From a virus (lineage: Duplodnaviria > Heunggongvirae > Uroviricota > Caudoviricetes), in the IMG/VR virus record IMGVR_UViG_2909288124_000003, positions 1 through 52,915 of that record: 52,915 bases of DNA. One strand, written 5' to 3'. Both the position numbers and the translations under genes were made by a program. This document shows positions 22,559 to 51,934 of the stretch, piece by piece (the stretch's first letter is position 1; every line of letters starts with the position of its first letter). Under the pieces are notes generated by a model that had not been told where the DNA came from, ran no database searches, and was given only the letters and a program-made list of their open reading frames with translations.

Positions 22559-23461
22559 TTAAGACTGGATATTCCAAATCATTGCGTTACCGTTATGATT
22601 TTCAATGATTTTTGCCAGTGGTGCTCCACCAAAAGAATGCATGTAGCTGTGATGTATAGTCAAAACCAAATCTTGAAGTACTTGATCACTTTCAAGTTCG
22701 GTAACATTCAACCCAATTTTCTGCGCCTTATCAAAATGAATATGACGCGAGTGGGTATAGGTTGTGTGATGGTTGTTTAACTCTGAACAAACATGTGTTG
22801 CTTTTGATTCTGCCTCAGGATCATTATCAAACATGCCTGTCATAAGCCAATGCTTAACAATCTCATTTGCCCATTTGATTGCTTTCTCACACTCGCCGAT
22901 GATCGTCGGGTTTAGCTTTTGAAGAATGAACTGCCACATCTGAACAGCTGCGGGATTTTGAAAAATTTCCGTCTGCGCACGATTCCATTCTTCAATGATG
23001 GCATGGGTGGAGAAACCGTTGAACTGAGGATCAATTGGGCCAATGTTGGACTGTTTACCCATGATGATTTCATTGGCACAACATGCAAGCATAGTTCCGC
23101 AGGACATTGAAATCATAGGAACAATTGCTCTGATGTTAGTTCCAAACTTCGACCTTAAGTAATGCCCGATTGATTCCAAAGCGGCAATATCACCACCTGG
23201 AGTATGAAGTATCAAATCCAACCCTTTTGATACATCTAAACCATTGATGGCTGTCATCAACCCGTTCTTATCATCATCAGTCATCTGAGTAAGATGGCGT
23301 ACTTCTGCACCACCATGCTGTAACCACCCTGAGTAATATGTGATTACATTTCTTCCAGTATGATTCGAAAGTTGAGATAAGTATTTACGGCGAACCTCAT
23401 CCATAGGACTTTTATGGGCGAGAGCCGTTATCTCGCCCAGTACGTCGCTCCAATTAGGCAT
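22559..23461 (-). CDS. Clp-fold serine protease-like protein (SDH/SppA-like), moron
   Basis: 300 aa with LILHTPGGDIAALESIG and MISMSCGTMLACCA motifs. AT-rich and set between Rz and cos (the lambda bor position). Confidence 0.45.
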   Translation of the reverse strand: MPNWSDVLGEITALAHKSPMDEVRRKYLSQLSNHTGRNVITYYSGWLQHGGAEVRHLTQMTDDDKNGLMTAINGLDVSKGLDLILHTPGGDIAALESIGHYLRSKFGTNIRAIVPMISMSCGTMLACCANEIIMGKQSNIGPIDPQFNGFSTHAIIEEWNRAQTEIFQNPAAVQMWQFILQKLNPTIIGECEKAIKWANEIVKHWLMTGMFDNDPEAESKATHVCSELNNHHTTYTHSRHIHFDKAQKIGLNVTELESDQVLQDLVLTIHHSYMHSFGGAPLAKIIENHNGNAMIWNIQS

Positions 23462-24035: not shown

Positions 24036-24572
24036 TCATTTTCGTAACTTCTCAATCTCTCGTATACCCGCCAGGTTATTGTTGCCCTTCTCAATAACAG
24101 CCAGCAAAGGTTCAATCCAGAGGACGGCCTGGCAATACGTCATTGAGCTGGCGGCAGCGGTACTATCATCGGTTGCGTTAGTGTTCCCGGTATCGGGGTG
24201 CATTGCGCTGGCACGTAAACGGTACGCGTATTTGAGCAGCCCACCAGCGACATCAGCAGGAACAGGCAGATCACAGGTCTTTTCACGTCGGAGAATCTCC
24301 CGGTATTCGATGACAGTTTTCTCAGTACCGGCATCGATCAGCGAGTTAAGGCGGTTGGCGTTCTCTGCTATCTGGTTAAACCGATTGAAGTTGAAAGCCT
24401 GTGTAGTTATCACCGTCGCCTGCAGCGCGTTATCATTACGTAATACCCGATTCTCACTCTGTTCTGTTTCAAGAGCTGAGCGGCTACGAACCAGTAATAC
24501 GCTAAGCACTGCAATAATGATTACGACAGCCACCAGCAGAACCGCAACAATCGTAATTTTTCTGGGTTTCAT
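24036..24572 (-). CDS. i-spanin Rz
   Basis: N-terminal transmembrane helix then coiled coil; contains an embedded out-of-frame lipoprotein ORF. Confidence 0.7.
   Translation of the reverse strand: MKPRKITIVAVLLVAVVIIIAVLSVLLVRSRSALETEQSENRVLRNDNALQATVITTQAFNFNRFNQIAENANRLNSLIDAGTEKTVIEYREILRREKTCDLPVPADVAGGLLKYAYRLRASAMHPDTGNTNATDDSTAAASSMTYCQAVLWIEPLLAVIEKGNNNLAGIREIEKLRK
24140..24334 (-). CDS. o-spanin Rz1 (embedded in Rz in an alternate frame)
   Basis: 64-aa ORF with lipobox LVGCS and a proline-rich mature part, wholly inside the Rz gene. Confidence 0.55.
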   Translation of the reverse strand: MPVLRKLSSNTGRFSDVKRPVICLFLLMSLVGCSNTRTVYVPAQCTPIPGTLTQPMIVPLPPAQ

Positions 24573-25144
24573 CAGAATACCCCCGGAACTGATACCGGAA
24601 TGCCAGGGTTAAGCGGCCCGAGTCCATCCCCCAGAACCTGAGGTTTCTCTGCCCACAGGCAAACTTCACGCTCAATCTCACGCCTCGTGATTAAACCCTT
24701 CCACTGTTTGTCACCAGCATAGATCCAGCGCCGCAGTTGTTCGCATGCGCCTTTCGAATCACCCTGGTTGATTTTTCGTAACAGTGTGGAGGTTTTGAAG
24801 TTTCCCGCGCCTACGTTATACGCAAATGAGTACAGCGCCCCTCTCATCGTTTCGGGGATCGGAGCATTGATATATGGGTTAATCTGTCGGGCGACAATAT
24901 TCAGGTCTTTATCCAGCAGCGCCTGGCACTCTGCTTTGGTGTAGGTCTTGCCGAGGATAATATCTTTACCAGTATGGCCCCAGCATACAGTCCACACTCC
25001 AACAACATCCCGATAAGGCTGATAGCGTACACCTTCAAGGCCATCATTACCCGTTGGGCCAGTAATCAACGCCGCAGCGATAGCAATAGCGCCAGCGGGT
25101 ATCGCTGCAATAACGCTATTCTTCAGCTTTGGTGGCATAGCCAT
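24572..25144 (-). CDS. SAR endolysin (phage 21 R-like lysozyme, GH24)
   Basis: Gly/Ala-rich N-terminal signal-anchor-release helix followed by a lysozyme region ([11 protein letters not shown]) resembling phage 21 R. Confidence 0.8.
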
Positions 25145-25394
25145 TGCGCCGATCCTCCCGTTCTTTCCAGCGGAAATACCAGTTCACTGCACAGGTAATA
25201 ACAGTGCATGCGATACCGACAATAATTGCCCAGTCGCTCAGGCTTAACCCTGCAATTCTGTCGGCCAACATCCAGGACACCTCTTTTGCTGTTTTTGCTG
25301 TTTCGGCATATGCCTTCGCTGATACACCGCAGCCGGTCAGCGTGGTGCCTGTTCCATATGAAAGTCTGCTGTAAATGGTGCTCATTCTGGTCAT
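25116..25394 (-). CDS. Holin (pinholin S21-like)
   Basis: Small membrane protein with a C-terminus like S21 (YF(R/K)x(K/R)EDRR), overlapping the endolysin start. Confidence 0.6.
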
Positions 25395-25601: not shown

Positions 25602-25772
25602 ATGATTATCAAGCCCTGCCCCTACTGCGGAAAGTTAATTAACCCAGAATCACTTGTGTGTAGCCACTGCCGGATAGTGAATCCTTTTGTGAAGGCCAGC
25701 AGAAGAGAAAAAGCGAAGAATGTATTAGTAATCGCTCTCGTTGCTGCTTTTTTAATTTGGATGATTCTCTGA
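25602..25772 (+). CDS. Small zinc-ribbon membrane protein (56 aa), not in the ORF track
   Basis: MIIKPCPYCGKLINPESLVCSHCRIV... followed by one hydrophobic helix; below the ORF-track size cut-off. Confidence 0.3.
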   Translation: MIIKPCPYCGKLINPESLVCSHCRIVNPFVKASRREKAKNVLVIALVAAFLIWMIL

Positions 25773-26210
25773 GTTGCCAGTTTTCAATGAAGATAATGCG
25801 GGCAAAAAAAGCCTGCTCGGACGAACAGGCATGAAAAATAACAATACCGTCAAGGAGGTGGCGCCGGGTGCCTCCCGGTGGAACAGCCCCAGCCGACTAG
25901 TTCCGCGCAAACAAACCTGGACAAAAAAGTTTGACTGGACGCCCCGCCGCATAGGGGGATTCACCACGAACCAAAAGATAAAATCATCCGGTGACCGGGG
26001 CAATATCTAACCGGAACTTTTCAGAATCACTTATTGTTTCCTGGAGAGTACATGAGCGTTGGTGAATTCACGTGATGCTTTTGGATGAGCGCTGAACCCA
26101 AAGGTCAGTATTTTCACACAGCAATTTTGCAAAAAGCAGCGCCCATTCAAAACCAGGTCGCTTTCCAGTCACTCCGGGGACCCCATCATCGCAGACCGAA
26201 AAGCTTAAAC

Positions 26211-26285
<75 letters not shown>

Positions 26286-26288
26286 ATA

Positions 26289-26364
<76 letters not shown>

Positions 26365-26366
26365 AG

Positions 26367-26440
26367 TGGTCCGCCACCGGAGCCTCGAACCCCGTACCAC
26401 AACACCTGGGTTGCCGCTCTTCCCGATGAGCTAGTGGCGG
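26367..26440 (-). tRNA. tRNA-like sequence with non-canonical anticodon arm (possible pseudo-tRNA or unusual tRNA)
   Basis: Canonical acceptor, D and T arms and CCA, but the anticodon stem pairs only with a 6-nt loop (CCAGGU) in my manual fold; 74 nt. Confidence 0.4.
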
Positions 26441-26442
26441 TC

Positions 26443-26519
26443 TGGTGGCCCTTGCTGGACTTGAACCAGCGACCGGGCGATTATGAGTCGCACGCTCTAA
26501 CCAACTGAGCTAAAGGGCC
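26443..26519 (-). tRNA. tRNA with CAU anticodon, tRNA-Ile2 (lysidine) type
   Basis: Anticodon loop CUCAUAA; sequence resembles E. coli ileX-type tRNA rather than initiator or elongator Met. Confidence 0.65.
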
Positions 26520-26644: not shown

Positions 26645-27595
26645 ATGATTTTTATTAAAAACGGCAATAGCTTTGATCGCATTAATGACTGGACAGAAAT
26701 TCAAGCTCGGGAAAGCTATCATTCCAGGCTGGAACTGACCGATCAACAATTATCCGATGTTTTTGGTTATTATGATGACCTCCCGGAAGAAATCCCGTGT
26801 GGCAAGTCGAGCTGTCGAACAGGCCATAAAAAAGGGTTTCTTGTTCTTACTGAGGATGGTCTGGAGACGAACCTGGGTCACGTTTGCGGTACAAAAGTCT
26901 TCGGTATAGCATTTGAAAACCTAGCCACTGACCTCGAGAAAAAGGCAAATTTCCACAGATATCTAACAGCCCTCAAGGAAGCCAAGAAAAATATTTTTCT
27001 CCATTACCAAGCAAAAGCCAAAATCGAAGCCAGTGAACCATCATTAGAATGGGTCGCACATAAAATTTTAGATTTAAGAGATTCTAAAGTAGTTGGCCGA
27101 GCCGGGAGTCAAGCTTTGAAACGTATGGCTGCTTTAGGAGATGGAAAAGTTTTACTTCCCAGAAGGAAAACCAAGGAAGAAATGCAGTTGTCGAATGTTA
27201 TGTCTCAAAAACCTTCCGATAACGAAGATGAAAATGCTGAGGATAATGTAAAACCACAATTCATCGACGAAGTAATTGGCATTGTTCGTAATCCTGAATG
27301 CCTCCTCAACGATTATAACATAGCGCTAATCTTCGAAAGAGATATTCGCCTTGTGCTGGAAGAACTCAATAATTGCAATCCTGACGATATTCCTGAGAAG
27401 AAGGTCATGTCATTAGGATTAAAAGTTTCCAGGCTGAATGAAAGATTTCAATTCCTTCAGGATCGTTTTGAGAAAGCATGTATATATCTCACAAAGGAAA
27501 ACTTTAAACCTTTAAATCATCAACTACATTTGAAAAAATCAATTAGCAATAAAGATAAGGCCCTTTTCAGTTCTTTCGTTAACTCGCTGCCATAA
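26645..27595 (+). CDS. Hypothetical 316-aa protein, AT-rich cargo gene antisense to the late operon
   Basis: Clean ORF with RBS AGGGAAG, low GC relative to the phage backbone, no recognisable motifs, ends at a bidirectional terminator shared with the late leader. Confidence 0.5.
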   Translation: MIFIKNGNSFDRINDWTEIQARESYHSRLELTDQQLSDVFGYYDDLPEEIPCGKSSCRTGHKKGFLVLTEDGLETNLGHVCGTKVFGIAFENLATDLEKKANFHRYLTALKEAKKNIFLHYQAKAKIEASEPSLEWVAHKILDLRDSKVVGRAGSQALKRMAALGDGKVLLPRRKTKEEMQLSNVMSQKPSDNEDENAEDNVKPQFIDEVIGIVRNPECLLNDYNIALIFERDIRLVLEELNNCNPDDIPEKKVMSLGLKVSRLNERFQFLQDRFEKACIYLTKENFKPLNHQLHLKKSISNKDKALFSSFVNSLP

Positions 27596-27616
27596 AAAAG
27601 CCCCGCAAGGGGCTTA
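27596..27616. terminator. Bidirectional rho-independent terminator (late-leader tR' and terminator of the plus-strand cargo gene)
   Basis: AGCCCC-GCAA-GGGGCT hairpin flanked by an A-run on one side and a T-run on the other. Confidence 0.6.
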
Positions 27617-27703: not shown

Positions 27704-28540
27704 CTAAATTTCGTCACCTTCTTCGCCTAAACTGGTTGCAGATTGAAATTCTCTTGCGGCGTTTCCCTCCTCCTGCTGACAAATGCTTACCAGCGCCTCA
27801 AGAAACGGTTTCCAGTTGCGAGTCCATGTTCTGACGTGCAGATCCGGAACGCGCTTCAGTATCACTTTATAGGCTGCGGTAGACGGCACCGCAGAAAATC
27901 CATTTCCGCTGCAGCGCTCGCAGGTTTTAAACACCGGCGCGCCGCGCTCGCTTGTGGCCTTGCGGTCTAGAACCTCGCCTTTACCGCCGCAACGACAACG
28001 GGCGCTGATCGTTCCCTTGCCTTCGCAAGCATCACAGACCGCCGGTACAACCTCTGTTACCTCCATCCACTGCTCCCAGTCAGACGGTCGAACAGCACGA
28101 GAGCGGCAGGCCCAGTATGGAGCTTTACCCCATGGGTACGAAACCTTGCGGGTAATCTGTTCGCGGGTTGTTCGTCCGGTACCACTGCAGCTGTGACACG
28201 TCACGCTTGTAGCCGCCGAACGTGAATAATCAGCAAAGGCAAATTGTGCCAACATCTGCATGCACCATCCGAACTGCCCACCAGCTGCTTTGCGAACATT
28301 CTTCGGTGCGACATCCATCGCATATCGCGCCAGCGCCTGAACTGCGAGCTGTTCATCCGTTTTGCTGATTCCCGCTTTACCGAAGAACGCCGCCAGTCCG
28401 AAGCGCGCACGGCTGCTGGTGGTGCCAATTGCCGCCATTACATCTGTTCCTGTAAGGCGGTCCGGAGAGGTTCCTTTCACGTCGTCGCTGATGTGCATAC
28501 CCTGAGGGCTAAAGTGTTTTAGTGAAGCTTCAAGTTTCAT
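27704..28540 (-). CDS. Antitermination protein Q (lambda Q family, 278 aa with extra Cys-rich insert)
   Basis: Matches lambda Q blocks: FSP..., L(S/T)GTDVMAA, FAYADY(C/S)RSAAT, C..C.GTGR, P(A/S)(S/T)AAY. Confidence 0.75.
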   Translation of the reverse strand: MKLEASLKHFSPQGMHISDDVKGTSPDRLTGTDVMAAIGTTSSRARFGLAAFFGKAGISKTDEQLAVQALARYAMDVAPKNVRKAAGGQFGWCMQMLAQFAFADYSRSAATSVTCHSCSGTGRTTREQITRKVSYPWGKAPYWACRSRAVRPSDWEQWMEVTEVVPAVCDACEGKGTISARCRCGGKGEVLDRKATSERGAPVFKTCERCSGNGFSAVPSTAAYKVILKRVPDLHVRTWTRNWKPFLEALVSICQQEEGNAAREFQSATSLGEEGDEI

Positions 28541-28543
28541 ATC

Positions 28544-28894
28544 TCAAACCCTCGTTACGTTGCTGGCTTCCCACTCGAGATCAAACTCGCTTTGCGGCTT
28601 ACCGACCAGGTAGTTAAATGGTTTTTTCTCGCCTTCCAGGAACTGGTGAGAGCGAGAGTCGAAATTAGCTCCGATGTCACCGATCCACCCTTCGCCCTCT
28701 CGTTGCTTCAACAAGCGAATCATTGAGGCAGGAAGATTGATTGCGGCCTGTTCGTCTTTGTCGAGGCTCTCATAACCCATACGGTCCGCTTTTGTTTCTG
28801 CGATACTGGTACCGCGAGATTTACCCAGACCAAAGGCACCTGCAATTGCTGCCAGCGCGGCAACAATCAGGCCGATAATCATTTCAAGTCCCAT
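28544..28894 (-). CDS. Membrane-anchored protein at the end of the second lysis cassette (possible spanin or lysis accessory protein)
   Basis: Start trimmed to MGLEMIIGLIVAALAAIAGAFGL (one N-terminal TM helix) with a soluble C-terminal region. Confidence 0.35.
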   Translation of the reverse strand: MGLEMIIGLIVAALAAIAGAFGLGKSRGTSIAETKADRMGYESLDKDEQAAINLPASMIRLLKQREGEGWIGDIGANFDSRSHQFLEGEKKPFNYLVGKPQSEFDLEWEASNVTRV

Positions 28895-28901
28895 AGTGAC
28901 C

Positions 28902-29516
28902 TCACACCAGTGCGGCTTTAGCTTTGGCGTAACGTTCACGGCGGTCTTTAATGCCGTTCTGCCCGCCGTTAATAATCTGCGTGACGCGTTCCACATCCCC
29001 CGAATAGAGGAGACAACCGCGTAACGTGAAGTACCATGCCGCCGAACGGGCCGCGTGTCGCTCTTGCGTCAATAGTTCCGGAGTGCTCACAAGGTCAAGC
29101 TTCAGCGCCGTACCGCATTTGGTGTAGTTCTCACGACCAGTGATTTGCAGCAGGCCACGACCGCGATATTTCCAGCCATCACCCTGACTGTTATTCCCCA
29201 TGCGGTCACCATAAACCAGATTGGCTATTTGTGGCTGGTGAGCGACCTGTTTACCATCGACACGCCCCAACATTTCGCACTGATACGTCGTCAGGCGCTT
29301 ACCGAAGGTTTTCTTCAGCCCTTCAACCGAGTAGTTAAAGTTCTCTACCAGCGAGGTAAAGCCATTGGATTCATGCCCAACTTGTGCAATGAACATGGCC
29401 TGATCGTTAGCTGCTGTGATTCCAAACTCTTTCATTGCAGCATCAATGTGCGGAAACCAGCGCGCAGCTAACCCGGCGCTAATGCCAGCCGCCTTTTGAA
29501 ATTGTGATTGGTTCAT
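28902..29516 (-). CDS. Endolysin, GH19 chitinase-like lysozyme
   Basis: 204 aa with lysozyme-like blocks (FIAQVGHESNGF, GRGLLQITG, AAWYF), following two small membrane proteins. Confidence 0.65.
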   Translation of the reverse strand: MNQSQFQKAAGISAGLAARWFPHIDAAMKEFGITAANDQAMFIAQVGHESNGFTSLVENFNYSVEGLKKTFGKRLTTYQCEMLGRVDGKQVAHQPQIANLVYGDRMGNNSQGDGWKYRGRGLLQITGRENYTKCGTALKLDLVSTPELLTQERHAARSAAWYFTLRGCLLYSGDVERVTQIINGGQNGIKDRRERYAKAKAALV

Positions 29517-29797
29517 TAGTGCCTCAGATGATCAACCAGGCGCGCAACGTTGCCTCTGACGGCCACTAGCACGGAAAGGAAAATAATGTTGGCCCCAATA
29601 GTGGCCCATGACGAATGAGGATAAATCCCGCACAGGTAGGCCAGAGGCACAGCGCTGTACGTGACAGTAATTAGCCAGGCTAAACGCGAAACCCACGGAC
29701 GATGGCGTGAATCACCACGACGATAAAACATCAGGGTAATCACCACCCCGACGCATAGAAGAGCGTTGATTGTTGCCGATGGGTCATTTAGTACCAC
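29516..29797 (-). CDS. Holin-like membrane protein (3 predicted TM helices)
   Basis: 93 aa with three hydrophobic segments, immediately upstream of the endolysin. Confidence 0.5.
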   Translation of the reverse strand: MVLNDPSATINALLCVGVVITLMFYRRGDSRHRPWVSRLAWLITVTYSAVPLAYLCGIYPHSSWATIGANIIFLSVLVAVRGNVARLVDHLRH

Positions 29798-30170
29798 CAG
29801 AACCTCCCCGGCGCGTTATCAGCGCCACCAAAGAGCCGACATCCTGGTTGTTCAGGAACGTCAGGATTTTGACAGCTAAAGCCGAAACGATTACGGCACC
29901 GATGGCATCCAGAGGCTTATCACTGTAACCAGTCCAGTCAGCCAGCTTTGAACCAACCAGCCCTGAGCAGATGATCCCGGCGATGTAGGACACGACAAAA
30001 TACGCCAGCCGGCGCGCTGCACTCAGGTCCGCGGCGGTTGCAATGTAAAATACAGCCACGGCAAATGCGCCAAACACCACGCCGTAATCGGTTCCGGAAA
30101 CAAATCCATAGACACTGGCTCCCGTCAGGACACCACCAGCCAGCCCAGTACCGGAAATCGGATCGGACAT
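29784..30170 (-). CDS. Holin-like membrane protein
   Basis: 128 aa, Gly/Ala-rich with multiple hydrophobic helices; first gene of this lysis cassette. Confidence 0.45.
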   Translation of the reverse strand: MSDPISGTGLAGGVLTGASVYGFVSGTDYGVVFGAFAVAVFYIATAADLSAARRLAYFVVSYIAGIICSGLVGSKLADWTGYSDKPLDAIGAVIVSALAVKILTFLNNQDVGSLVALITRRGGSGGTK

Positions 30171-30324
30171 TTAGCCCCCTCTTTATTGCTGTGAGTCCTC
30201 TCAGAATGAGGGGAATAAAAAAGGTCACCAGCGGCGACCTAGAGGTGAGTACTATTTTTTACATTAGGGTGATAAGAGGTCATATTTAATTTAAGCCTCA
30301 TAGAGGCTAGGTGTAAAGAACAAG

Positions 30325-31074
30325 TTATTTCCATTTAAATGAATCAATAACTTTCTGAATTATATCACGCACAACCTCTAATGTTTCACGTGTAACATCA
30401 ACCTTGCCGTAACTACCATTACCCATTGTGCAACCGAAACTAGAACCAGACAAATGACTAATAACAAGTACACCACCCTCAGATTTTATTCCACCATCAT
30501 CAATGGGTTGTAACTCAATCAATTTACCTCGTTTCTTTCCTAATACTCTATCTTCAATATGGTGTGATGAGTCTCTGACATGAATTAAATCTGGAAAAGC
30601 CTCACCCATCATCATTTTAATTTTAGATATTCTACTTTGGACTTCTGGTTCCTCAGGAAGAATATTAATTATTTTTTCGATTGTATCCAATGAATATAAA
30701 AATGATTTCGCATATATAAAAGGCAAGCTATGTTGCAAATAACTTGGTAGTTTCCCTTCATTTAATTTTTTTTGATTAAGGATTGATTCTACTTTTTTAC
30801 TTAACTTATCATGATTTTCAAAAACACTTAAGTCAAACTCATGTTCTATAGATTTTTGAATTTGAATCCTTTCCTCTCTGTCTTCCAACCATTCTCTTCT
30901 AGATTCAAAAGCGCCTTGTACATTCGCTATTTCTCTATCAAAAAATAAAAGTGACACAAATGCTTCATTAAAACAAGACTCTAACTGACTGATAATACGC
31001 TCAACATTTCGAGACCATTGGCTATCATCACTGTCGATCCAACTCCCAGGTTTAACTAACTCCATAATTTCCAT
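30325..31074 (-). CDS. Hypothetical 249-aa protein, AT-rich moron directly downstream of the Q-like gene and its terminator
   Basis: Clean ORF, low GC, no recognisable motifs, flanked by terminator-like hairpins. Confidence 0.5.
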   Translation of the reverse strand: MEIMELVKPGSWIDSDDSQWSRNVERIISQLESCFNEAFVSLLFFDREIANVQGAFESRREWLEDREERIQIQKSIEHEFDLSVFENHDKLSKKVESILNQKKLNEGKLPSYLQHSLPFIYAKSFLYSLDTIEKIINILPEEPEVQSRISKIKMMMGEAFPDLIHVRDSSHHIEDRVLGKKRGKLIELQPIDDGGIKSEGGVLVISHLSGSSFGCTMGNGSYGKVDVTRETLEVVRDIIQKVIDSFKWK

Positions 31075-31138
31075 TTCGCCTCCTGATTATCATCATTTAA
31101 CTCAATTTCTCATCTAATATGATAACCAAAAAGGACAC

Positions 31139-31161
31139 AAAAAACCCGCTCAATGGCGGGT
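31139..31161 (-). terminator. Rho-independent terminator downstream of the Q-like gene (tR'-like)
   Basis: Minus strand CCCGCCATTGAGCGGG followed by TTTTTTG. Confidence 0.5.
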
Positions 31162-31211
31162 TCTTGATGTTTGTTGCTCAGTTCGCTTTAACGTCCCGAG
31201 CCTACCACAAT

Positions 31212-31790
31212 TTAAGCACTTTCTTGCTCACTCTGCAACTTAAATCTGTCGCTATTTGTGCCGAATGCGTCACAAACTGGAGCGTACAGGATCGATTCTG
31301 CAAGACTTAGCCAAGTGTCAATGCGTCGACGACAGGTGATCAGCGGCCAGTCAGGATGTTTAGCCTGCAGTTCATTGGCCATCTGCAGCTTGCTCTTGCG
31401 TAGGCGATGGCGGTCGACAATCACGCTATAGAGCGATCGGTAGTCATCATTCATCAGTACAGAAGCAATGACACCATCCACTAACAACCCTTCTTCGTCT
31501 GAACAGAACGCCAGGCCGCTTTTATTTTTGCTGTTGAGGATTTCACGAAGGTACGCTTCAAGTTCAGGTTTGGTGATGCCTGATTTCTTCATACGGCGAA
31601 GCGCATCATTGATAGCTGTCTTGGTGATTTTCCCGGATGCCAGAAGCTGGTTAAACATGTTCCCACCACTACCACCGCCGATATAAGACCAGCGGCCCCA
31701 CATGCGCAACTTACCCTGTATCCAGATGCTTTCCAGAGTACGAAGACGAACCATTTCACCAGATTTACCAACTTCAGAAGGATTAATCAT
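31212..31790 (-). CDS. Putative second antitermination protein (Q-like, different family from the one at 27704..28540)
   Basis: 192-aa basic protein in the canonical Q position (after the nin-like genes, before a terminator and a lysis cassette). The family assignment is from my recollection of 82-type Q motifs, not a search. Confidence 0.4.
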   Translation of the reverse strand: MINPSEVGKSGEMVRLRTLESIWIQGKLRMWGRWSYIGGGSGGNMFNQLLASGKITKTAINDALRRMKKSGITKPELEAYLREILNSKNKSGLAFCSDEEGLLVDGVIASVLMNDDYRSLYSVIVDRHRLRKSKLQMANELQAKHPDWPLITCRRRIDTWLSLAESILYAPVCDAFGTNSDRFKLQSEQESA

Positions 31791-31804: not shown

Positions 31805-32794
31805 TTACGCCAGTACGCCGATTGCCAGCGCACGATCTATAACCCGAAACACCAGGACCAGTTGGTCACCGTATTTCGCTTCAAATGCCACAGGATCAGC
31901 ATGCAACTCGTCGTGATGCTCTCTGCACAGAGGAATCACAAACAGGTCGTGTGCCTTTGTACCCATTCCACCCTGCCCGTGGCCAATCAGGTGATGGGGG
32001 TCGTCAGCTTGCTTGTTACAGCAGACGCACGGCTGGGCCTTAACCCATCTCGTGTATTTCTCATTCACCCAGCGGCGACGCTTGGGTTTAAGCATGAAGG
32101 ATTCCGGCGTCTCTGGGTCAACCTTCATTGCCACTATCTTTTTCGCTTTCTCCTGTACCAGTTGTTTGGCGGGTAATGCCGGAACAATATCGCTTTCACG
32201 TGTTACCGACTGGTGGGACTCTTTCTTCAGACGAAGAGCTTTATGTGCTACGGCTTCAGGTATCTCATCAGCCAGGTCGCTCCTGACCATCCACCAGCAA
32301 AACTCCGGCAGTGTAAGAATGTGGTCCTCACTGAAACCTAATTGGCCGTTTACAACCTTCAGTAGCCAGGATACCAGGTTTTCACGGGCTATACCCGCCA
32401 GACCTTCAGTGAACTGATCACGAATTTTTAAGTCACAGCCCCAGCACGTGCGGATTGAGCCAGGTGCATGCCGGGTTATGGTGTAGTTGCGATCGTGCCA
32501 CTCGCTGTGTGGGTACTGACATTCCAGTTTTCTTTCGAGCCAAGCATCCAGTGAATTGAGTCCACCTGCACGATGTATGACCTTCTGATTTTCGAAGACA
32601 TCACGCATTAACGGATCATTCTGAAGCTCCTGAGTTGTCTCAGGCAGCAGACCAGACGGTAACTCAGCCATTGACTCTGCCTGTGGCTCGATAAGAACAC
32701 GCCCACGTCTGAACAGATGCATCAGTTCACTGCCTGGGCGAAATAACACTACCCCGGTCATCGGTGCCACTTCAGGTGTCAGTAATGCCCTCAC
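31805..32794 (-). CDS. DUF968-like protein with C-terminal HNH/zinc-finger-like motif
   Basis: 329 aa with C-terminal CVCC...HH...H cluster; nin-region position typical of Rac/Qin-like prophages. Confidence 0.45.
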   Translation of the reverse strand: MRALLTPEVAPMTGVVLFRPGSELMHLFRRGRVLIEPQAESMAELPSGLLPETTQELQNDPLMRDVFENQKVIHRAGGLNSLDAWLERKLECQYPHSEWHDRNYTITRHAPGSIRTCWGCDLKIRDQFTEGLAGIARENLVSWLLKVVNGQLGFSEDHILTLPEFCWWMVRSDLADEIPEAVAHKALRLKKESHQSVTRESDIVPALPAKQLVQEKAKKIVAMKVDPETPESFMLKPKRRRWVNEKYTRWVKAQPCVCCNKQADDPHHLIGHGQGGMGTKAHDLFVIPLCREHHDELHADPVAFEAKYGDQLVLVFRVIDRALAIGVLA

Positions 32795-45702: not shown

Positions 45703-47226
45703 ATGAAACGTGCCATTTCTTACATCAGGTTTTCATCTGAGAAGCAATCCCGAGGTGATTCACTACGCAGACAGTCTAAGATGGTTAATGACTGGCTTAA
45801 GGCTCATCCTGAGTACTACCTTGACCAAGATTTATCCTTCCGTGATTTGGGGGTGAGTGGGTTCACTGGTAAGCACTTGAAAGGTGGCTTAGGTGACTTC
45901 TTAACCGCTATCGAGAAAGGGCTTGTTAAAGCTGGTGATACACTACTAATCGAGAGTTTAGACCGTCTGTCACGTCAAGATGTAGACCAAGCAAGCGAGC
46001 TACTCAGAAACATTCTTCGCTCTGGTGTAGATGTAGTCACCCTGTCCGATGGTGAACATTACACAAAAGAGAGTTTAAAAGACCCGTTAGCTCTGATTAA
46101 AAGCATTTTGATAATGCAACGAGCGCATGAGGAATCATTACGTAAGGCTGAGCGTATCCAAGCTGCATGGGATGCAAAGAAAGAAGCTGCTAAAGCTGGT
46201 ATCAAGATTTCTAGGCGTTGTCCTGCATGGCTTAAGCTTAATGATGACCGTAAAAGCTTCTCTGTGATACCTGAGAAAGTGGAGACTGTGAAGAGGTGCT
46301 TTCAGCTACGGTTAGAGGGTAAGTCTATCTGGGAGATTGTCAGAACTCTTAATGCTGAAGGTCACCGGTCGATGAACCAATACAAGCCGGGTAAGTTTGG
46401 TCAAACCTCAGTGCAAGACCTTTTGAAGAATCGCTCTGTAATTGGATACTTTACCCCGAAAGGCTGTGAAGAGATATCTGGTTATTATCCTGCAATTATA
46501 GATGAAACAACATTCTACAAAGTTCAACAACTATCACATTCTCGTTATGGAAAGAGGTCTGTTTCAGATAAACCATTGAGTGTGAATCTCTTTAAAGGTG
46601 TTATCCGTTGTTCTGAATGTGGTCATGCTCTGATTATCACAGGCTTTAGCGATACAAGAAACGGGATTTATCGTTGTCCTCTTCGTAATGAAAACCGTTG
46701 CAATGCCAAAGGGCTGTCACGTAAGCAAACCGATGGTACATTACTTGCCCTGCTATCTCGTCTTGACCGATTTGATAGCGATATGACGAATGTCATTGAT
46801 GCATTGAAGCTACACCGTGAACACATCTCAAACAATATTGAAAAGCTGGTACAGCTATCACTTGAAATTGAAGATTTGTCAGCTATTACCATCAAACTAA
46901 AGCAGTTAAAAGGTGAGCTATCACAGGTTGATGCGGATATCGAGAAGGAGACACAACGCCTTAAATCTATTGATGTGGGGTGTTTGTCTGATTGTGACTT
47001 GACTACAAAGGCGGGAAGGATTGAAGCACAACTGATAATCAAAAGTGCTGTTAAAGAGGTCGTTTTAAATACTGCTAAACGTCGCTGTAAAGTAACTTTT
47101 CACAATAGTAAGTCAATCACCCTACCAATAACAGAAAACCCCTCAGAGGACGTTACAGAGGCTATACAGTCGCTTTCTGAAGTCACTGAGAGGGGGTTGA
47201 TAGATGTTGATGAGGTTATCATATAG
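45703..47226 (+). CDS. Large serine recombinase (serine integrase) of a second integrated element
   Basis: N-terminal resolvase-type catalytic region (ISYIRFSSEKQ), recombinase and zinc-ribbon region (CSECGH...CPLRNENRC), coiled-coil C-terminus; sits at the junction with yecE. Confidence 0.8.
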   Translation: MKRAISYIRFSSEKQSRGDSLRRQSKMVNDWLKAHPEYYLDQDLSFRDLGVSGFTGKHLKGGLGDFLTAIEKGLVKAGDTLLIESLDRLSRQDVDQASELLRNILRSGVDVVTLSDGEHYTKESLKDPLALIKSILIMQRAHEESLRKAERIQAAWDAKKEAAKAGIKISRRCPAWLKLNDDRKSFSVIPEKVETVKRCFQLRLEGKSIWEIVRTLNAEGHRSMNQYKPGKFGQTSVQDLLKNRSVIGYFTPKGCEEISGYYPAIIDETTFYKVQQLSHSRYGKRSVSDKPLSVNLFKGVIRCSECGHALIITGFSDTRNGIYRCPLRNENRCNAKGLSRKQTDGTLLALLSRLDRFDSDMTNVIDALKLHREHISNNIEKLVQLSLEIEDLSAITIKLKQLKGELSQVDADIEKETQRLKSIDVGCLSDCDLTTKAGRIEAQLIIKSAVKEVVLNTAKRRCKVTFHNSKSITLPITENPSEDVTEAIQSLSEVTERGLIDVDEVII

Positions 47227-47240
47227 TTGAGATTCTATCG

Positions 47241-48014
47241 TCAGTAGCGCTTGTGAGGATTCACAGACAGCCTCTTCAAAACATTACCTGTACCAGCATT
47301 ATTAAGCACCTTTGCAGCTTGCTCATTAGCGGCATCTGAGAAGGTGCTTTTTCCATTCTCAACTTTGACACTTCTACCACAATTGATACGGGCTTGAAGT
47401 TGCTCATTAGAAAGTTCACTCGTAGAGCGATTATATAGCTCCTGACACAGCAACATACCATTACCTAAACTTGTTGTAGTGTTCCCTGTATTCTTTTTAC
47501 TGGTAGCACCACCATCATTTGTGGTAGCCGTTTTGCCAGTAGCAGCCGAAATATCCGTTTGACCTACGATTGAACGAAACTCTACACCTTGGAAGGTCAT
47601 CTGAATACGAAGACCATTAGCAATGGTATGCTCTTTACTCGCTTTAAACTGAGTAATGATACTATCAGTGATAGATATTCCATCTTTACAAACAATAGTG
47701 ATGATTTGCTTCTGGTCTCGCCATTGTTCAACCGTAGAAATAAAGGTCTCTACAAGTTGCCCCTGTCTGGTTAATAGAACTGAACCCGTCGAATCAACCA
47801 CTACAACACCGCTAATAGAGATGGTCTTAGGTGCTCTCTGAACATTATCAGTGATAGTTTGCCCCGATTGCATAGCCTGAGTTGTCACCATCATCGGTGA
47901 GTCATAGTCCATCTGTTCAGTAGCTGTTAAGGCAAGAAAAGATTCTACATTATCTCTAAGGTGAAAATAGATACCATCTTTACCTGAATATCTAATTTGC
48001 TTTGTGTCAAACAT
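47241..48014 (-). CDS. Hypothetical protein (possible tail component) of element 2
   Basis: 257-aa ORF downstream of the tape-measure gene in an AT-rich region. Confidence 0.4.
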
Positions 48015-48033
48015 TGTTGTTATTCCTATTCTG

Positions 48034-48098
48034 TTAAGCGTGAGCTACGTGAAATCTAATTTTTGATGTTGGTATCTGTTCAGAAGATTTCACGTAGC
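48034..48098. repeat. Conserved intergenic palindromic element, copy A
   Basis: TTAAGCGTGAGCTACGTGAAATC and GATTTCACGTAGC (13-bp perfect inverted repeat) flank a 29-bp spacer, about 20 bp upstream of the RBS of the 48014..47241 gene. Confidence 0.6.
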
Positions 48099-48187
48099 AT
48101 TCGACTATTCATAGTTGAATCGTCATACTAGATAAAGATTAATAGATTGCCATGTGTGGCAATAAATATTAGTAGTTCTAACATTGT

Positions 48188-50269
48188 TTATTCCTCTGGG
48201 TAAGCTGAGCTAATCAAGGTATCTTCCTGCATACGATTAATATGCGATGTGGTTCTTTCATCAATAACCTTTCCATCAAGTACCGTCTGAGTTGTGATAT
48301 TGATTGTCTGAGGCTGAATATTTACTGACGGCTTGATAACCTTTAAATCTTGTGTGAATGTTTCCACTCGACCTTTCAGATTATTTAATGCTTCATGTGA
48401 AATCTGTGGAACATCTTTTGATTTGCCATGAACCATAGCCCATAAAACAGCGGCTAAAGAGTTCATGTCACCAGTCAATGCTTGGTCTGTGGGTTCCACC
48501 TTTGACCTTACAACTTTGTCAATTGGATTATCTGACTTACTCATCTGACGTTCATAGAACGGTTTAACAATGGAGTTAATCACATCAGTTGCCATACCGA
48601 CAATCATTACTTTGGTAATTGCATCAGCTACAGATAATTTTCCTTTACCACCTTCAACACTACCAGTACCAGAACGTGAATTGATTCTTCCCGCTGCTGT
48701 ATTTGCGACATTTCCAAGCGTGGAAATAGCCCTAATTAAGTTCCAGATACCACCTACAGCACCAATACCAGACCTTACAGCGACAATACCAGCAAGTCCC
48801 TTTAATGCACTTAACAGGCCATTTGCGATACCATCAGCTACAGCTTTTTGAGTGTCATTTAATTCTCTGTAAGCAAGGGTCACTCTGTCAAAGAATCCCT
48901 GCACTCGGTAGCTAATCGTGGTTAAATCATCAATACCGTTTGACATGCTTTTCATCAGGTCGCCAAAATGTTCACCAAGACTTTTAGATTGACCACCTAG
49001 TGAATTAAGTAAATTAGTCAGTGACCTTGTAAAATCTACCAGACCTTCCTGTGAACCATCGAACATTAAGGCCAGATTATTATTCCATGAATTACTTAAG
49101 CGGCCTAACTGCGTCTGAGTAGAGTTAATAATCTTTTCCCATCCACCAGCTTTATCAATCATCCTTCCCATTTCAGCGGATACTTTAGGAAGAACATCTT
49201 TAGAAAGAACCTTACCGTCTTTCATGGCCTTGTCTAATTCTTCCGTAGTCATCCCAAGACTTCTGGCAAATAACTGGAAAGCACCTGCCATTCTGTCCCC
49301 TAACTGACCGCGTAATTCTTCAGCCTGAATCTTTCCTTTAGATGCCATCTGCTCGAAAGCTTTTAAAATCCCGTTAATTTCATCGGTGCTTAGCCCCATT
49401 AATCTGGATGTACCAATCACATTACTAAATAGGGATTCTTTCTGGCCTGCATCCATATCACCAGCACCAGCGGAAAACTTAGCAAAACTGCTTAATGTTT
49501 CAATCTGGTCTACACCACTACTATCAGCAAGATTCTTAACAAATTCTGTAGCTCGTTTAGCACCTTCATCACCTAAAACGAATTGTGCCGCTCGTTGTGA
49601 TGCTTCTTTTTTCAGACCAACTTCCATAACCTTCCTATAAGCTTCTAAGGCTGTCTGAAAACTATAAATGGCTGTACCTGCTTTGATTGCACTTGTAGCT
49701 AATACATCTAAACCATTTGAAGCATTTTCACTGTGATTGTTTTTGCTGGTGGTCTTGTTAAACTTAGAAAGTGTTTCACGTAGATTTTGATTTAACTTTG
49801 CTAACTCACGATTAAAAGCTTCGTTCCCAAGTGTCTTGGATTTACTAGCTAGCCCATAAAACTGGCTCTTAATGTATTTCTCGACAATTGGGTTAAGACC
49901 TTTCAGCTTGGTCATATTAGCTGAATAAGCTGCTGTGATTGCTCTGTTGCCGCTAATTCGTGGCTGTCTTGATTGTTTTGGAGGATTAACAGTGTCATTA
50001 AATCTGGTGGCAAACTGAAATGCTTTTGTGCTTTTTGCTCTCTGTTCAATCTTGTCAAAGGTCTTATTAAACTTCCTTTCAAGTTGCCCTAAAGAGCTTG
50101 TCAGATTGCTGTCAAGTTGCTTGGTATCGACCTTAAACGCCCTATTCAAATTACGTTCAATTCTTTGTGCTGACTGCAAAGCTGCCTTTTCAACTCTTTG
50201 CAGACCTTTAATAACGTTCTCGCTGAAGCCTAGTTCAACGATAAACGAATCAACTGTGAATTTGCTCAT
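48188..50269 (-). CDS. Tail tape measure protein of element 2
   Basis: 693-aa helical protein with the conserved tape-measure block (KGKIQAEELRGQLGDRMAGAFQLFARSLGMTTEELDKAMKDGKV). Confidence 0.7.
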   Translation of the reverse strand: MSKFTVDSFIVELGFSENVIKGLQRVEKAALQSAQRIERNLNRAFKVDTKQLDSNLTSSLGQLERKFNKTFDKIEQRAKSTKAFQFATRFNDTVNPPKQSRQPRISGNRAITAAYSANMTKLKGLNPIVEKYIKSQFYGLASKSKTLGNEAFNRELAKLNQNLRETLSKFNKTTSKNNHSENASNGLDVLATSAIKAGTAIYSFQTALEAYRKVMEVGLKKEASQRAAQFVLGDEGAKRATEFVKNLADSSGVDQIETLSSFAKFSAGAGDMDAGQKESLFSNVIGTSRLMGLSTDEINGILKAFEQMASKGKIQAEELRGQLGDRMAGAFQLFARSLGMTTEELDKAMKDGKVLSKDVLPKVSAEMGRMIDKAGGWEKIINSTQTQLGRLSNSWNNNLALMFDGSQEGLVDFTRSLTNLLNSLGGQSKSLGEHFGDLMKSMSNGIDDLTTISYRVQGFFDRVTLAYRELNDTQKAVADGIANGLLSALKGLAGIVAVRSGIGAVGGIWNLIRAISTLGNVANTAAGRINSRSGTGSVEGGKGKLSVADAITKVMIVGMATDVINSIVKPFYERQMSKSDNPIDKVVRSKVEPTDQALTGDMNSLAAVLWAMVHGKSKDVPQISHEALNNLKGRVETFTQDLKVIKPSVNIQPQTINITTQTVLDGKVIDERTTSHINRMQEDTLISSAYPEE

Positions 50270-50287
50270 TGTTCATATTTCACCTCT

Positions 50288-50352
50288 TTAAGCGTGAGCT
50301 ACGTAAAAAATAATTTTTGGTGGGTATATCTGTTCAGAAGATTTCACGTAGC
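50288..50352. repeat. Conserved intergenic palindromic element, copy B
   Basis: Same element as 48034..48098 (shared TTAAGCGTGAGCTACGT and TCTGTTCAGAAGATTTCACGTAGC), about 20 bp upstream of the tape-measure RBS. Confidence 0.6.
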
Positions 50353-50436
50353 ACACATACAAAAAAGGGAGAAACTACCGAATAATATCGATAATCTCTC
50401 CCCGTGTTATAGATTCGATTAGAAGCTAATCTCAAA

Positions 50437-50652
50437 TTAATGCCTGACAAGATAATGTAGTTCCGTTTCACCTATGATTTGAGCATCAGAAGGAATACGG
50501 TCGATACACCATTTTGGAATCTTGCGTGTTTTTGGTTTGCGTGAGGTGATAATTTGATGTTTGGTTTTAATTCTTAAGGCTGGCTTAGTTTGTAACTTTA
50601 AGTTTTCACAAACAGACTTAATAGTTTCATAGCGTTCTGTTAAATCAATCAT
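50437..50652 (-). CDS. Hypothetical small basic protein
   Basis: 71-aa ORF in element 2. Confidence 0.35.
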   Translation of the reverse strand: MIDLTERYETIKSVCENLKLQTKPALRIKTKHQIITSRKPKTRKIPKWCIDRIPSDAQIIGETELHYLVRH

Positions 50653-50674
50653 TCATCACCTCACATATGCATAA

Positions 50675-51379
50675 TTAAACAGCCTTGCTAAATTCTCGTG
50701 GAACACTCAGAAAATCATTGAAGCTGATAATCTGTGCCAACTCTTGACGGTACTCCTTAGCCAGCGCTTGATGGTCACTAATCAGCTTAGCCAGTCTTGA
50801 TTTCAGCAAATTAATCTCATTTTCTCTTGCTTTCATCAGTTTCTCTTTGGCAATTTCTTCAAGCTCAGCTTGTGATTTATCAGCAACAATTAGAGACAGT
50901 CGATGTGGTGCTCTGACAGCTCTTTCTGTACGAACAACTCTTTGACCTTCTGGTAAATCTGCAATCACTTTACCAATCTCTACAGGGTCATACCCCCAAC
51001 CGTCACGGTCTAGTCGAGAGAAATAAGCATAAGAATTGGTTTGAAGCTCCATCAAAATAGCCATTTCGTCAATTTCGTCTTCAAGCTTGGACTGAATTTT
51101 CTCGTAAACACTTCTCATTGCTTCTTGAGAGTCTCGAAGGTCTTTGAAATATTTGCGTTGCAGCTTCAGTTTCAAATCAAGCTCACATTCCTCATTCATC
51201 GAAAAATCAATTTCAACTCTTGGAATCTCGATTGGTTCTGGTGGAATATATGGACCTTTATTTACTTCGTGCGATTCCCGCCAAGCTCTATCAAAAGATT
51301 CACGCAAAGTTAATTCGTGAATATCAAGTGCACTTGGTCTGTTCTCAACAATCATTTCGTGTTCATTACGAATGGACAT
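50675..51379 (-). CDS. Hypothetical protein (coiled-coil C-terminus)
   Basis: 234-aa ORF in element 2. Confidence 0.4.
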   Translation of the reverse strand: MSIRNEHEMIVENRPSALDIHELTLRESFDRAWRESHEVNKGPYIPPEPIEIPRVEIDFSMNEECELDLKLKLQRKYFKDLRDSQEAMRSVYEKIQSKLEDEIDEMAILMELQTNSYAYFSRLDRDGWGYDPVEIGKVIADLPEGQRVVRTERAVRAPHRLSLIVADKSQAELEEIAKEKLMKARENEINLLKSRLAKLISDHQALAKEYRQELAQIISFNDFLSVPREFSKAV

Positions 51380-51934
51380 TAATATTTTCCTCTTCTAAGA
51401 TAATTTATGTTTCAGTTTTTAAAAAGCACACCTGACAGCCTATCTAAACTTAGAAGAGACTTAAAAGGCGGTTTGCCAAGTATGCTTTTTAAAAGCTGAA
51501 AAAAGCCCTAAACATAATCTGTGAAGGGCTTTGGAGGTTTGCTTTATAACGTTAACGAAGTTTCAGGAAAAACTTTCTTTAAGAGTTCTGCTTAAAAGCT
51601 CTTAAAGAAAGCCCTAACTCATGATTAGGGCAAAGCTGTAAGGATTCAATAACGAATGAACAAAGACTTTTTGAGATAGCCTCTCAGACTAAACTGAAAG
51701 GCCATGACGAAAAGCATTGCACCTTTCCAACTCAGAATATAGTTATCATCGATGTAGAACGATTAATAGTTTAATTCAAGGAGAATTGCTCTCCTCATAT
51801 ATACAATTATGTCATGCTCAAGGTTATTTGTCAACAGCTTTTAACAGATTGGTAACATCAATTTTTATTTACCGTGTTGCCCACCCAGCAACCAACAAAT
51901 AAACCCAAAGCTGTCCAAGCAATTATTAAGCCCA

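Follow-up and report, generated by a model that had tools for sequence, protein, structure and literature searches.

Tandem Q-like genes and lysis cassettes in a lambdoid prophage: the probable scar of a single microhomology-mediated crossover between two phages

Q antiterminators fall into three unrelated families, namely Q21 (PF06530), Q-lambda (PF03589) and Q82 (PF06323) (PMC9388147). RNA polymerase loaded with Q constitutes a processive antitermination complex on which Q stays; Q-lambda and Q21 are non-homologous and differ in their Q-binding elements (QBEs), and in Q-lambda particular roles have been assigned to a zinc-ribbon "arm" and to an N-terminal RNA-exit nozzle (PMC9388147). The curated record of phage 21 gives its late promoter pR' a -35 element TTGACA, a QBE made up of ATTGAGCA and AATGAGCA in the spacer, a -10 element, the start site, a sigma-dependent pause element (SDPE) TAAGCT and a terminator within 50 nt. 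In phage lambda the leader, the 6S RNA, is about 190 nt long. Lysis of Gram-negative hosts is modelled as the combined work of a holin or pinholin, a signal-anchor-release (SAR) endolysin and a spanin, and the mosaic genomes of lambdoid phages are explained, in the model associated with Hendrix and Juhala, by illegitimate recombination and subsequent selection. "Two blocks" of lytic-cassette genes were mentioned in passing for Shiga toxin (Stx) prophages by Pinto et al. 2021 (PMC8136144), likewise as more than one lysis block in predicted lambdoid prophages; that study offers no junction analysis or mechanism, and its boundaries are PHASTER predictions. Here we describe a locus in a stretch of viral DNA of 52,915 nt (IMG/VR record IMGVR_UViG_2909288124_000003, positions 1 to 52,915; hereafter the window) in which a Q-like gene of the DUF1133 family (Q1) and a lambda-family Q gene (Q2) each precede a lysis cassette on the minus strand. 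We propose, with a probability of roughly 0.7, that this tandem was left behind when two lambdoid phages underwent one illegitimate, microhomology-mediated crossover, and that Q1 serves as the master regulator, Q2 as a redundant booster and cassette 2 as the only source of spanins.

Read along the minus strand, the genes follow in the order DUF968/HNH protein, DUF1133 protein, moron, holin, holin, GH19 endolysin, a chimeric open reading frame (ORF), Q2, a gene on the opposite strand, tRNAs, a small RNA (sRNA), holin, SAR lysozyme, Rz/Rz1 and the terminase genes, and a terminator scan combined with folding places four hairpin and T-run terminators between them on the same strand (Table 1). A comparison with annotated E. 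coli prophages resolves this order into two parental segments. Positions 34500-31139 of the window are 99.3% identical to the ET5 prophage, which has one Q-like gene and one lysis cassette in the order DUF968, DUF1133, moron, holin, holin, GH19, i-spanin/o-spanin, HNH, terminase. Identity to the AW1.7 prophage is 99.9% from 28793 onward, and identity to the MS 115-1 prophage is 99.7% from 28540 onward; the order of the latter is primase/helicase (AAA ATPase), Q, an opposite-strand gene of 316 amino acids (aa), tRNAs, lysis genes and terminase; homology to lysis cassettes of the ET5 and LMessi types ends at 28783. The edges of the blastn blocks thus fall at 28783 and 28793, and the 11 nt between them, AAAAGCGGACC, are the only DNA common to both parents at the crossover and the point at which the window changes parent. 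The first parent, phage X, would have had a single Q and an intact cassette, as ET5 and TUM18780 do, and would have contributed the early region, Q1 with the candidate promoter PR'1 and the terminator tR'1, the moron slot and the holin-holin-GH19 cassette up to codon 37 of the i-spanin. The second, phage Y, of the architecture shown by MS 115-1, would have supplied the last 79 codons of the primase/helicase, Q2 together with its PR'2 and tR'2, the tRNAs and the 316-aa gene, and presumably also a second lysis cassette and virion genes, which would have been exchanged since.

The crossover left its mark in the chimeric ORF, in which residues 1-37 of an i-spanin are fused in frame to the C-terminal 79 residues of the primase/helicase, and whose N-terminal and C-terminal parts match the PHROGs for an Rz-like spanin and for "DNA primase", respectively. 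Where the ET5 i-spanin reads MGLEMIIGL...AETKAD-QKRTEE... and the AW1.7 ATPase ends ...AQRKAD-RMGYESLDKDEQ..., the window ORF reads ...AETKAD-RMGYESLDKDEQ..., with AETKAD passing in frame into RMGYES, and it runs on to the ATPase stop codon, 3 nt before the start of Q2. The truncated i-spanin, cut after residue 37 of 89, retains its transmembrane (TM) segment and 14 further residues; the o-spanin frame is gone, no lipobox-bearing ORF occurs in any frame between 28544 and 28996, and cassette 1 is accordingly devoid of a functional spanin. The ET5 counterpart has an intact 89-aa i-spanin with an overlapping, lipobox-bearing o-spanin, both of which the window lacks. This loss is accounted for by the crossover having fallen inside the i-spanin gene.

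These results uphold the first-pass annotation of this DNA in its gene order and coordinates on the minus strand, every listed gene having a significant family match, and in its suggestion of a mosaic junction between two lambdoid phages, which the prophage comparison now places at window positions 28793-28783. Its description of two complete late-control and lysis units does not stand, with the cassette 1 i-spanin cut after residue 37 and the o-spanin gene absent; the annotation had itself named an inactivating lesion not visible by eye in one cassette as a point that would tell against it, and the spanin loss is such a lesion. The ORF that it called a membrane protein does exist, yet it is the spanin-primase chimera and leaves the first lysis unit incomplete. 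The annotation was drawn up for positions 27704-31790, and the second lysis cassette lies outside that span.

The distribution of the junction bears on its age. A 301-nt query across it is fully covered in 2 of 5,426 complete Escherichia coli genomes, and an exact junction 30-mer found no match in one-genome-per-species bacterial contigs or in IMG/VR. E. coli strains with the junction include VREC0761 (NZ_LR536430) and MB06232 (NZ_CM129885). Searched as an exact protein, the 116-aa chimera occurs in 120 blocks of a large assembly collection, and its 90% cluster comprises about 110 contigs, every named member of which is E. coli. All ten tandem loci that were read carry Q1, moron, holin, holin, GH19, chimera, Q2, the 316-aa gene, a class II holin, lysozyme and a downstream ORF in the spanin region; the Q1 position is occupied by a DUF1133 protein in four and by a 276-aa PF03589 protein in six, the morons vary, and two or more versions of the second cassette occur. 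A core of 4.2 kb (30240-26067) is common to the tandem, and the 2.1 kb of it that hold the chimera, Q2 and the 316-aa gene differ by 0-1 positions among 11 sequences. The variation in holin8 and GH19 within the core consists of imported allele blocks, from which the ratio of nonsynonymous to synonymous polymorphism (pN/pS) of 0.17-0.24 stems and which make it uninformative. Given the almost complete lack of divergence among about 110 contigs with varied flanks, the junction is young; the sequences point to a joint that arose once and recently, its flanks having since been swapped by homologous recombination. In one tandem locus (L011, 6009-7956) an ISL3-family transposase gene and a gene with a P22_AR_C domain lie between the first Q and cassette 1, where they may disturb Q1-dependent transcription. 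A Q21-like Q placed upstream of a lambda-like Q, untrimmed, is an uncommon variant, of which a literature search found no description beyond the remark in PMC8136144.

Several lines of comparison connect Q1 with the Q21 family. The protein scores 33.6 bits (cut-off 26; 4e-8) against PF06530 (Phage_antitermQ), over profile positions 18-91 of 118 only, and belongs to PHROG 753, annotated "Q-like"; DUF1133 was also listed as a Q antiterminator on the basis of HHpred by Pinto et al. 2021 (PMC8136144). By itself the sequence matches Q21 (PDB 6P18) with an E-value of 0.0076, which improves to 1.1e-6 with a profile of 17 DUF1133 family members, the next PDB match being at 0.065, and hhalign of DUF1133 against the phage 21 Q gives a probability of 92.3% and an E-value of 5.6e-7, with about 83 columns aligned at 24% identity between proteins of 192 and 162 aa. 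In the genome Q1 stands where Q21-type antiterminators stand, as the last early gene directly before a promoter-terminator unit and the lysis genes. The DUF1133 family is narrow, with a handful of full-length clusters at 50% identity. We collected 80 viral DUF1133 loci from IMG/VR with a 7-sequence alignment, which retrieves relatives at 82-100% identity only; at least 56 of these have the holin8/holin3_7/GH19 cassette, and a Q2-like (lambda-type) gene occurs within 3 kb downstream of DUF1133 in none of the 80. A protein identical to Q1 is found on 682 contigs, and identical copies also occur in single-Q viral contigs. Judged from these neighborhoods, DUF1133 is normally the sole late regulator of a holin/holin/GH19 cassette, and Q1 is very probably a remote relative of the Q21 family and an antiterminator candidate.

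The region that follows Q1 adds to this picture. The last codons of Q1, a leader of about 45 nt and the terminator are almost invariant in ET5, in TUM18780 (88% identity overall) and in a Klebsiella phage (78%), and the tR'1 hairpin keeps its stem in these relatives while its loop varies. For 77 of the 80 viral DUF1133 loci, similarity to the window breaks off precisely where the tR'1 T-run ends, which argues that the Q1 gene, promoter, leader and terminator are one module. The predicted PR'1 unit shares with phage 21 pR' the order of its elements, namely a -35 element, a spacer element containing TGAGCA, a -10 element, a pause-like hexamer TAnnCT and a terminator within about 60 nt, and the TAGGCT of the window sits where phage 21 has TAAGCT; there is one clear QBE-like subsite, as against two adjacent direct repeats in phage 21. 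The likeness in layout is clear and that of the second QBE subsite is not, so that the putative unit supports the assignment of Q1 without being conclusive. The view of the first-pass annotation that this gene encodes an antiterminator is thereby very probably right, given the kinship with Q21, the phage-21-like promoter/terminator unit and the standing of DUF1133 as the sole Q-like gene in the 80 viral contigs, as judged over the 3 kb downstream.

Q2 belongs to the Q-lambda family, and the lambda-family label it was first given is confirmed by a match to Q-lambda (PDB 7UBM) at 3.2e-39 over residues 1-125 and 179-262. Its CxxC pairs align with the zinc ribbon of Q-lambda and its N-terminal segment aligns from residue 1; it differs from the lambda protein in an insertion of about 55 aa (residues 126-178) in the region of the zinc-ribbon arm, which brings two extra CxxC pairs. 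The resulting total of four CxxC-type motifs resembles the DnaJ zinc-finger domain (PF00684, below cut-off). At the DNA level Q2 is 99.7-99.9% identical to its copies in MS 115-1, which has no other Q, and in AW1.7, which has no other intact one. The candidate promoter PR'2 has a counterpart in the isolated phage LMessi, in which TTGACT and TATGCT, 18 nt apart, lie at the aligned position and are followed by a terminator; aligned with lambda PR', the region downstream of Q2 gave no convincing correspondence in the -10 or the pause element, and the promoter is a candidate only. The terminator tR'2 is kept in AW1.7, and LMessi has a comparable hairpin with a T-run. In LMessi a related lambda-type Q precedes a holin8/holin3_7/endolysin/spanin cassette, and this pairing indicates that Q types and lysis cassette types assort freely. 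Next to Q2, both in MS 115-1 and in every tandem locus, stands the opposite-strand 316-aa gene, whose 3' end abuts the Q2 terminator; that terminator may act on both strands.

In light of this anatomy, we propose a likely course of late transcription. Q1, made from the early operon, would load onto RNA polymerase at PR'1 and bring about readthrough of tR'1 and of the second terminator; the modified polymerase would continue through cassette 1, Q2, tR'2, the tRNAs, the STnc100 terminator, cassette 2 and the virion genes. Ahead of cassette 1 and Q2 there are two terminators and no visible promoter (the scan found no minus-strand promoter-like site between 30170 and 28540), so that Q2 would now be a late gene subordinate to Q1. 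Q2 would in turn act at its own PR'2 and merely add to the transcription of cassette 2 and the virion genes, and cross-activation of the two is not expected, since their families are non-homologous and use different DNA sites. Both holin/endolysin pairs would be made, and the first holin to fire would depolarise the membrane, upon which the soluble GH19 enzyme would be released through the large holin and the SAR endolysin activated; because the crossover destroyed the spanins of cassette 1, disruption of the outer membrane would rely on the Rz/Rz1 pair of cassette 2. More speculatively, the in-frame fusion may incidentally keep ribosomes running to the Q2 start. To the question raised by the first-pass annotation of which Q drives which genes, the anatomy thus offers a provisional answer, with Q1 upstream of all and Q2 inside a Q1-dependent transcription unit.

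Several points weigh against this proposal. Antitermination by DUF1133 is a prediction, and an AlphaFold2 model of the protein from a shallow alignment of 23 close homologues is unusable (pLDDT 45.5, pTM 0.33). The QBE resemblance consists of one 7-of-8 subsite with no clear direct repeat, and PR'1 and PR'2 are consensus-level predictions in a window in which the scan finds promoter-like sites no more often than in shuffled sequence. Leaky terminators or an unrecognised promoter in cassette 1 could give Q2 independent expression. With 0-1 substitutions in 2.1 kb, intact ORFs say little about the function of cassette 1 or about selection. Finally, no virion-derived sequence with the junction was found, IMG/VR included, and the viability of a tandem phage is presumed.

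The foremost alternative holds that Q1 and cassette 1 are silent leftovers, the prophage relying on Q2, expressed by terminator leak or from a cryptic promoter, and on cassette 2, with cassette 1 heading to decay. We regard this as unlikely. It accords with the spanins of cassette 1 being already gone; all ORFs of that cassette are nonetheless intact in the window and the ten other tandem loci (11 of 11), although the junction is too young for decay to show. The activity of DUF1133 is predicted and its similarity to Q21 remote, yet other phages carry an identical protein as their only Q, and the promoter/terminator unit of Q1 is intact and conserved. That Q2 can be the only intact Q of a prophage is apparent from AW1.7, where the same Q2 module replaced a truncated upstream Q, and in L011 the ISL3 insertion separates Q1 from cassette 1; in the window, however, two strong terminators and no recognisable promoter lie ahead of Q2, and its synthesis without Q1 is hard to see.

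The tandem might instead be kept by selection as a two-step cascade, in which a Q21-like Q switches on a Q-lambda-like Q and the two are coupled to two lysis systems, one of a large-hole holin with a soluble GH19 enzyme and the other of a pinholin, SAR lysozyme and spanins. If so, the benefit would be sharper timing, sturdier lysis or insurance against interference with one system by the host or a competitor, and the roughly 110 assemblies in several phage backgrounds would reflect advantage and not recency. The 4.2-kb core has indeed been passed untrimmed between backgrounds, for the E. coli contigs that carry it, about 110 in number, differ in Q1 (two types or more), in the moron (several) and in the second cassette (two kinds or more); it is rare all the same (2 of 5,426 complete E. 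coli genomes, 0 of 80 viral DUF1133 loci, no exact match in the species representatives or IMG/VR), and the near-zero divergence at the junction leaves little time for selection. Recombinant holin8 and GH19 alleles inside the core also speak for this reading, but the pN/pS values derive from these imported blocks and not from evolution within the tandem. As the spanin loss and the junk chimeric ORF also look accidental, we hold such a selected cascade to be improbable.

Holin/endolysin-dependent secretion systems are known, and the spanin-less cassette 1 resembles them to the extent that it might have been repurposed as a type 10 secretion-like export device for cargo such as the product of the adjacent moron. 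A spanin-less holin-endolysin layout beside a moron without known function is all that speaks for this, whereas the position of the crossover fully explains the spanin loss, tandem loci that are otherwise identical carry unrelated genes at the moron position, and cassette 1, behind two terminators in a late operon, is expected to be expressed in lytic growth only; we consider the idea very improbable. We reject the idea of an assembly artefact, or of two neighboring prophages taken for a single one. The right end of the window does hold a portion of another, unrelated prophage; the junction, however, lies within a single gene as an in-frame fusion, recurs unchanged in two closed E. coli chromosomes and in many independent assemblies among about 110 contigs, and stands in a continuous gene order with no integrase or attachment site between the units.

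Table 1. Features of the tandem locus and its neighbors (window coordinates; E-values follow the family or structure named)
Feature	Position	Strand	Basis or remark
DUF968/HNH protein	31805-32794	minus	
Q1, DUF1133 protein, 192 aa	31212-31790	minus	Pfam DUF1133 1.7e-92; last gene of early operon
Candidate late promoter PR'1	31199-31238	minus	Predicted; read from sequence
PR'1 -35, TTGCAG	31238-31233	minus	
PR'1 QBE-like element, AGTGAGCA	31232-31225	minus	7-of-8 subsite match, in spacer
PR'1 -10, TTAAAT	31215-31210	minus	Overlaps Q1 stop codon
PR'1 -10-like pause element, TAGGCT	31204-31199	minus	
Second QBE-like element, ACTGAGCA	31182-31175	minus	In leader
tR'1 intrinsic terminator	31135-31165 (hairpin with T-run, 31165-31140)	minus	-17.3 kcal/mol, z -4.6; about 50 nt past Q1 stop codon
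Moron promoter-like site	31113-31086	minus	
Moron, 249-aa ORF	30325-31074	minus	phrog_5322 only
Terminator 2	30240-30222	minus	-11.8 kcal/mol; directly upstream of cassette 1; left edge of shared tandem core (block boundary 30240)
Holin-like gene, Phage_holin_8 (PF16931), 128 aa	29784-30170	minus	Pfam 2e-32; 3-4 hydrophobic segments
Second holin-like gene, Phage_holin_3_7 (PF05449), 93 aa	29516-29797	minus	Pfam 1e-19; 3 TM segments
Soluble GH19 endolysin, 204 aa	28902-29516	minus	PDB 4OK7 ("Endolysin") 1.2e-79
Chimeric ORF	28544-28894 (116 aa from M35) or from upstream ATG at 28996 (150 aa)	minus	Single TM segment
Crossover point, 11-nt microhomology AAAAGCGGACC	28793-28783	minus	Three-way nucleotide comparison of window, ET5 and AW1.7
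Q2, Q-lambda-family antiterminator, 278 aa	27704-28540	minus	PF03589 6e-54, 180.6 bits (cut-off 26.7)
Candidate late promoter PR'2	27684-27642	minus	-35 TTGATT (27684-27679), 18-nt spacer, -10 TATGCT (27660-27655), then TCTAATCATGCGG
tR'2 intrinsic terminator after Q2	27593-27615 (hairpin with T-run, 27615-27598)	minus	-12.1 kcal/mol
316-aa gene	26645-27595	plus	phrog_7003, function unknown
tRNA cluster: CAU (Met/Ile2-type), degenerate tRNA-like element, Thr-UGU, Gly-UCC	26211-26519	minus	ARAGORN; Rfam confirms three
tRNA-like element, abnormal 2-base anticodon	26367-26440	minus	ARAGORN; between tRNA-CAU and tRNA-Thr
STnc100-family sRNA	25800-25992	minus	Rfam RF02076, 71.7 bits (gathering score 47)
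Terminator ending STnc100 sRNA	25830-25811	minus	-13.5 kcal/mol
Class II (phage-21/HP1-type) holin, dual start M1 T R M4	25116-25394	minus	PF16080 1.7e-11, PF04971 1.6e-7
SAR endolysin (lysozyme)	24572-25144	minus	PDB 3HDE ("Lysozyme") 7.8e-90, aligned from residue 3
i-spanin Rz, 178 aa	24036-24572	minus	N-terminal TM segment
o-spanin Rz1, embedded in Rz	24140-24334	minus	Lipobox LVGC

The holin and endolysin genes of cassette 1 are intact. Their ORFs are full length in comparison with ET5, LMessi and TUM18780, and the GH19 enzyme keeps the Glu positions of its HES and VEN motifs in the alignment with 4OK7, which we take to be the SPN1S endolysin, and has no hydrophobic segment. The moron ahead of it is bracketed by tR'1 and terminator 2 and has a GC content of 30-35%, set against about 52%. 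The 249-aa ORF had no match in Pfam, NCBIfam or PADLOC, and the same searches with both morons and the chimera returned nothing. In sister prophages (ET5, VREC0761 and other loci) the slot is filled by unrelated genes of 178, 198 or 216 aa. As an extra gene with a promoter-like site and a terminator, atypical composition and variable presence, the ORF is a moron in the sense of Juhala and Hendrix, and it could be an accessory or defence gene expressed in the lysogen.

Cassette 2 has the make-up of the phage 21 type as read from its genes, with a dual-start class II holin, a SAR endolysin with its triad and an Rz with embedded Rz1, and the region is 92% identical in DNA to the holin/lysozyme/Rz region of HK225. 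In the alignment with 3HDE, presumably phage 21 R, the lysozyme keeps the positions of the E-D-T triad, and its N-terminal segment is hydrophobic and rich in Gly and Ala. It extends about 24 residues past the C-terminal end of 3HDE (24572-24650), and, with versions of 179-190 aa in sister loci, the gene is a hot spot of recombination at its 3' end. Upstream, the STnc100 sRNA lies between the tRNA cluster and the class II holin, that is, inside the late operon and ahead of the lysis genes. The tRNA-like element at 26367-26440 was not detected by Rfam and is omitted from the RefSeq annotations of identical loci; it is probably a degenerate tRNA. A 56-aa ORF on the plus strand (25602-25772), between sRNA and holin, has an N-terminal zinc ribbon and a C-terminal hydrophobic tail, and the gene is also called in three of the other loci.

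Between the lysis cassette and the small terminase gene (DUF1441) the minus strand codes for a 300-aa ClpP-like serine protease of the SDH type (PF01972, 8e-23; 22559-23461), which has no PADLOC match and is found in one other locus as well. The right end of the window (47200-52915) belongs to a different prophage with tape measure, baseplate, HNH and recombinase genes, to which prophages in 47 complete E. coli genomes are about 90% identical. Two adjacent prophages are thus covered by the window, which may hold no host genes at all.

The tandem is a clearly resolved but ordinary case of phage mosaicism, all of its parts being of known kinds, and it is not a new mechanism. Its components are textbook lambdoid modules that leave the view of late control and lysis unchanged. 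Its value lies in an unusually clean, base-resolved snapshot of how a mosaic originates, by a single microhomology crossover inside two unrelated genes, and in the natural test system offered by two non-homologous Q proteins placed one behind the other and by two holin and endolysin types within a single operon, which raises the questions of how Q systems are insulated from each other and which holin sets the lysis clock. Its comparison with relatives also lends support to DUF1133 proteins being late antiterminators of the Q21-like kind, equipped with a phage-21-like promoter/terminator unit, an assignment that has so far been a homology prediction only.

Compared with the late region of phage lambda, Q2 is likewise followed by a promoter-like site and an intrinsic terminator and then by lysis and virion genes. 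The predicted leader of about 50 nt is far shorter than the lambda 6S RNA, the spacing of the -10 and pause elements at PR'2 differs, and tRNAs, an opposite-strand gene and an sRNA intervene between tR'2 and the holin. Moreover, whereas Q stands at the end of the early operon in lambda, Q2 lies downstream of another Q and a lysis cassette. With phage 21 the window shares a closely related cassette 2, as the 3HDE match, the dual-start class II holin and the Rz1 within Rz indicate; the Q21-like Q and the 21-like lysis genes nevertheless come from different parental segments, Q1 being naturally paired with the GH19 cassette, unlike the pinholin cassette of phage 21. Cassette 1 has the holin8-holin3_7-GH19 order and overlapping starts of the SPN1S/epsilon15 type, as found in ET5, TUM18780, LMessi and Klebsiella phage 1 LV-2017, and departs from it in lacking the spanin pair, with the i-spanin cut at codon 37 and fused to the primase/helicase tail.

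The AW1.7 prophage (NZ_CP073624.1) offers the nearest parallel to the junction. The same right arm of phage Y, with the 3' end of the ATPase gene and Q2, stands there behind the Q region of another lambdoid phage, and positions 5156-7090 of the locus (L004) carry a Q without its C-terminus, an AAA ATPase without its N-terminus and then the same Q2. The crossover is an independent one, in which about 222 ATPase codons were kept and the upstream Q was cut, leaving one intact Q and one lysis cassette; since the two joints are independent, capture of this phage arm has taken place on at least two occasions, with different crossover points. Measured against lambdoid mosaics in general, the joint of the window conforms to the model of Hendrix and Juhala in being a novel joint at a short microhomology inside two unrelated genes, with flanking modules swapped by homologous recombination, and its moron is, as elsewhere in lambdoid phages, an AT-rich unit of promoter, gene and terminator in the slot after tR'. 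Where the usual joints are tidy and lie at gene boundaries, this one is untrimmed and still keeps a second Q, most of a lysis cassette and an in-frame chimera, and it is thus an early-stage snapshot of mosaicism.

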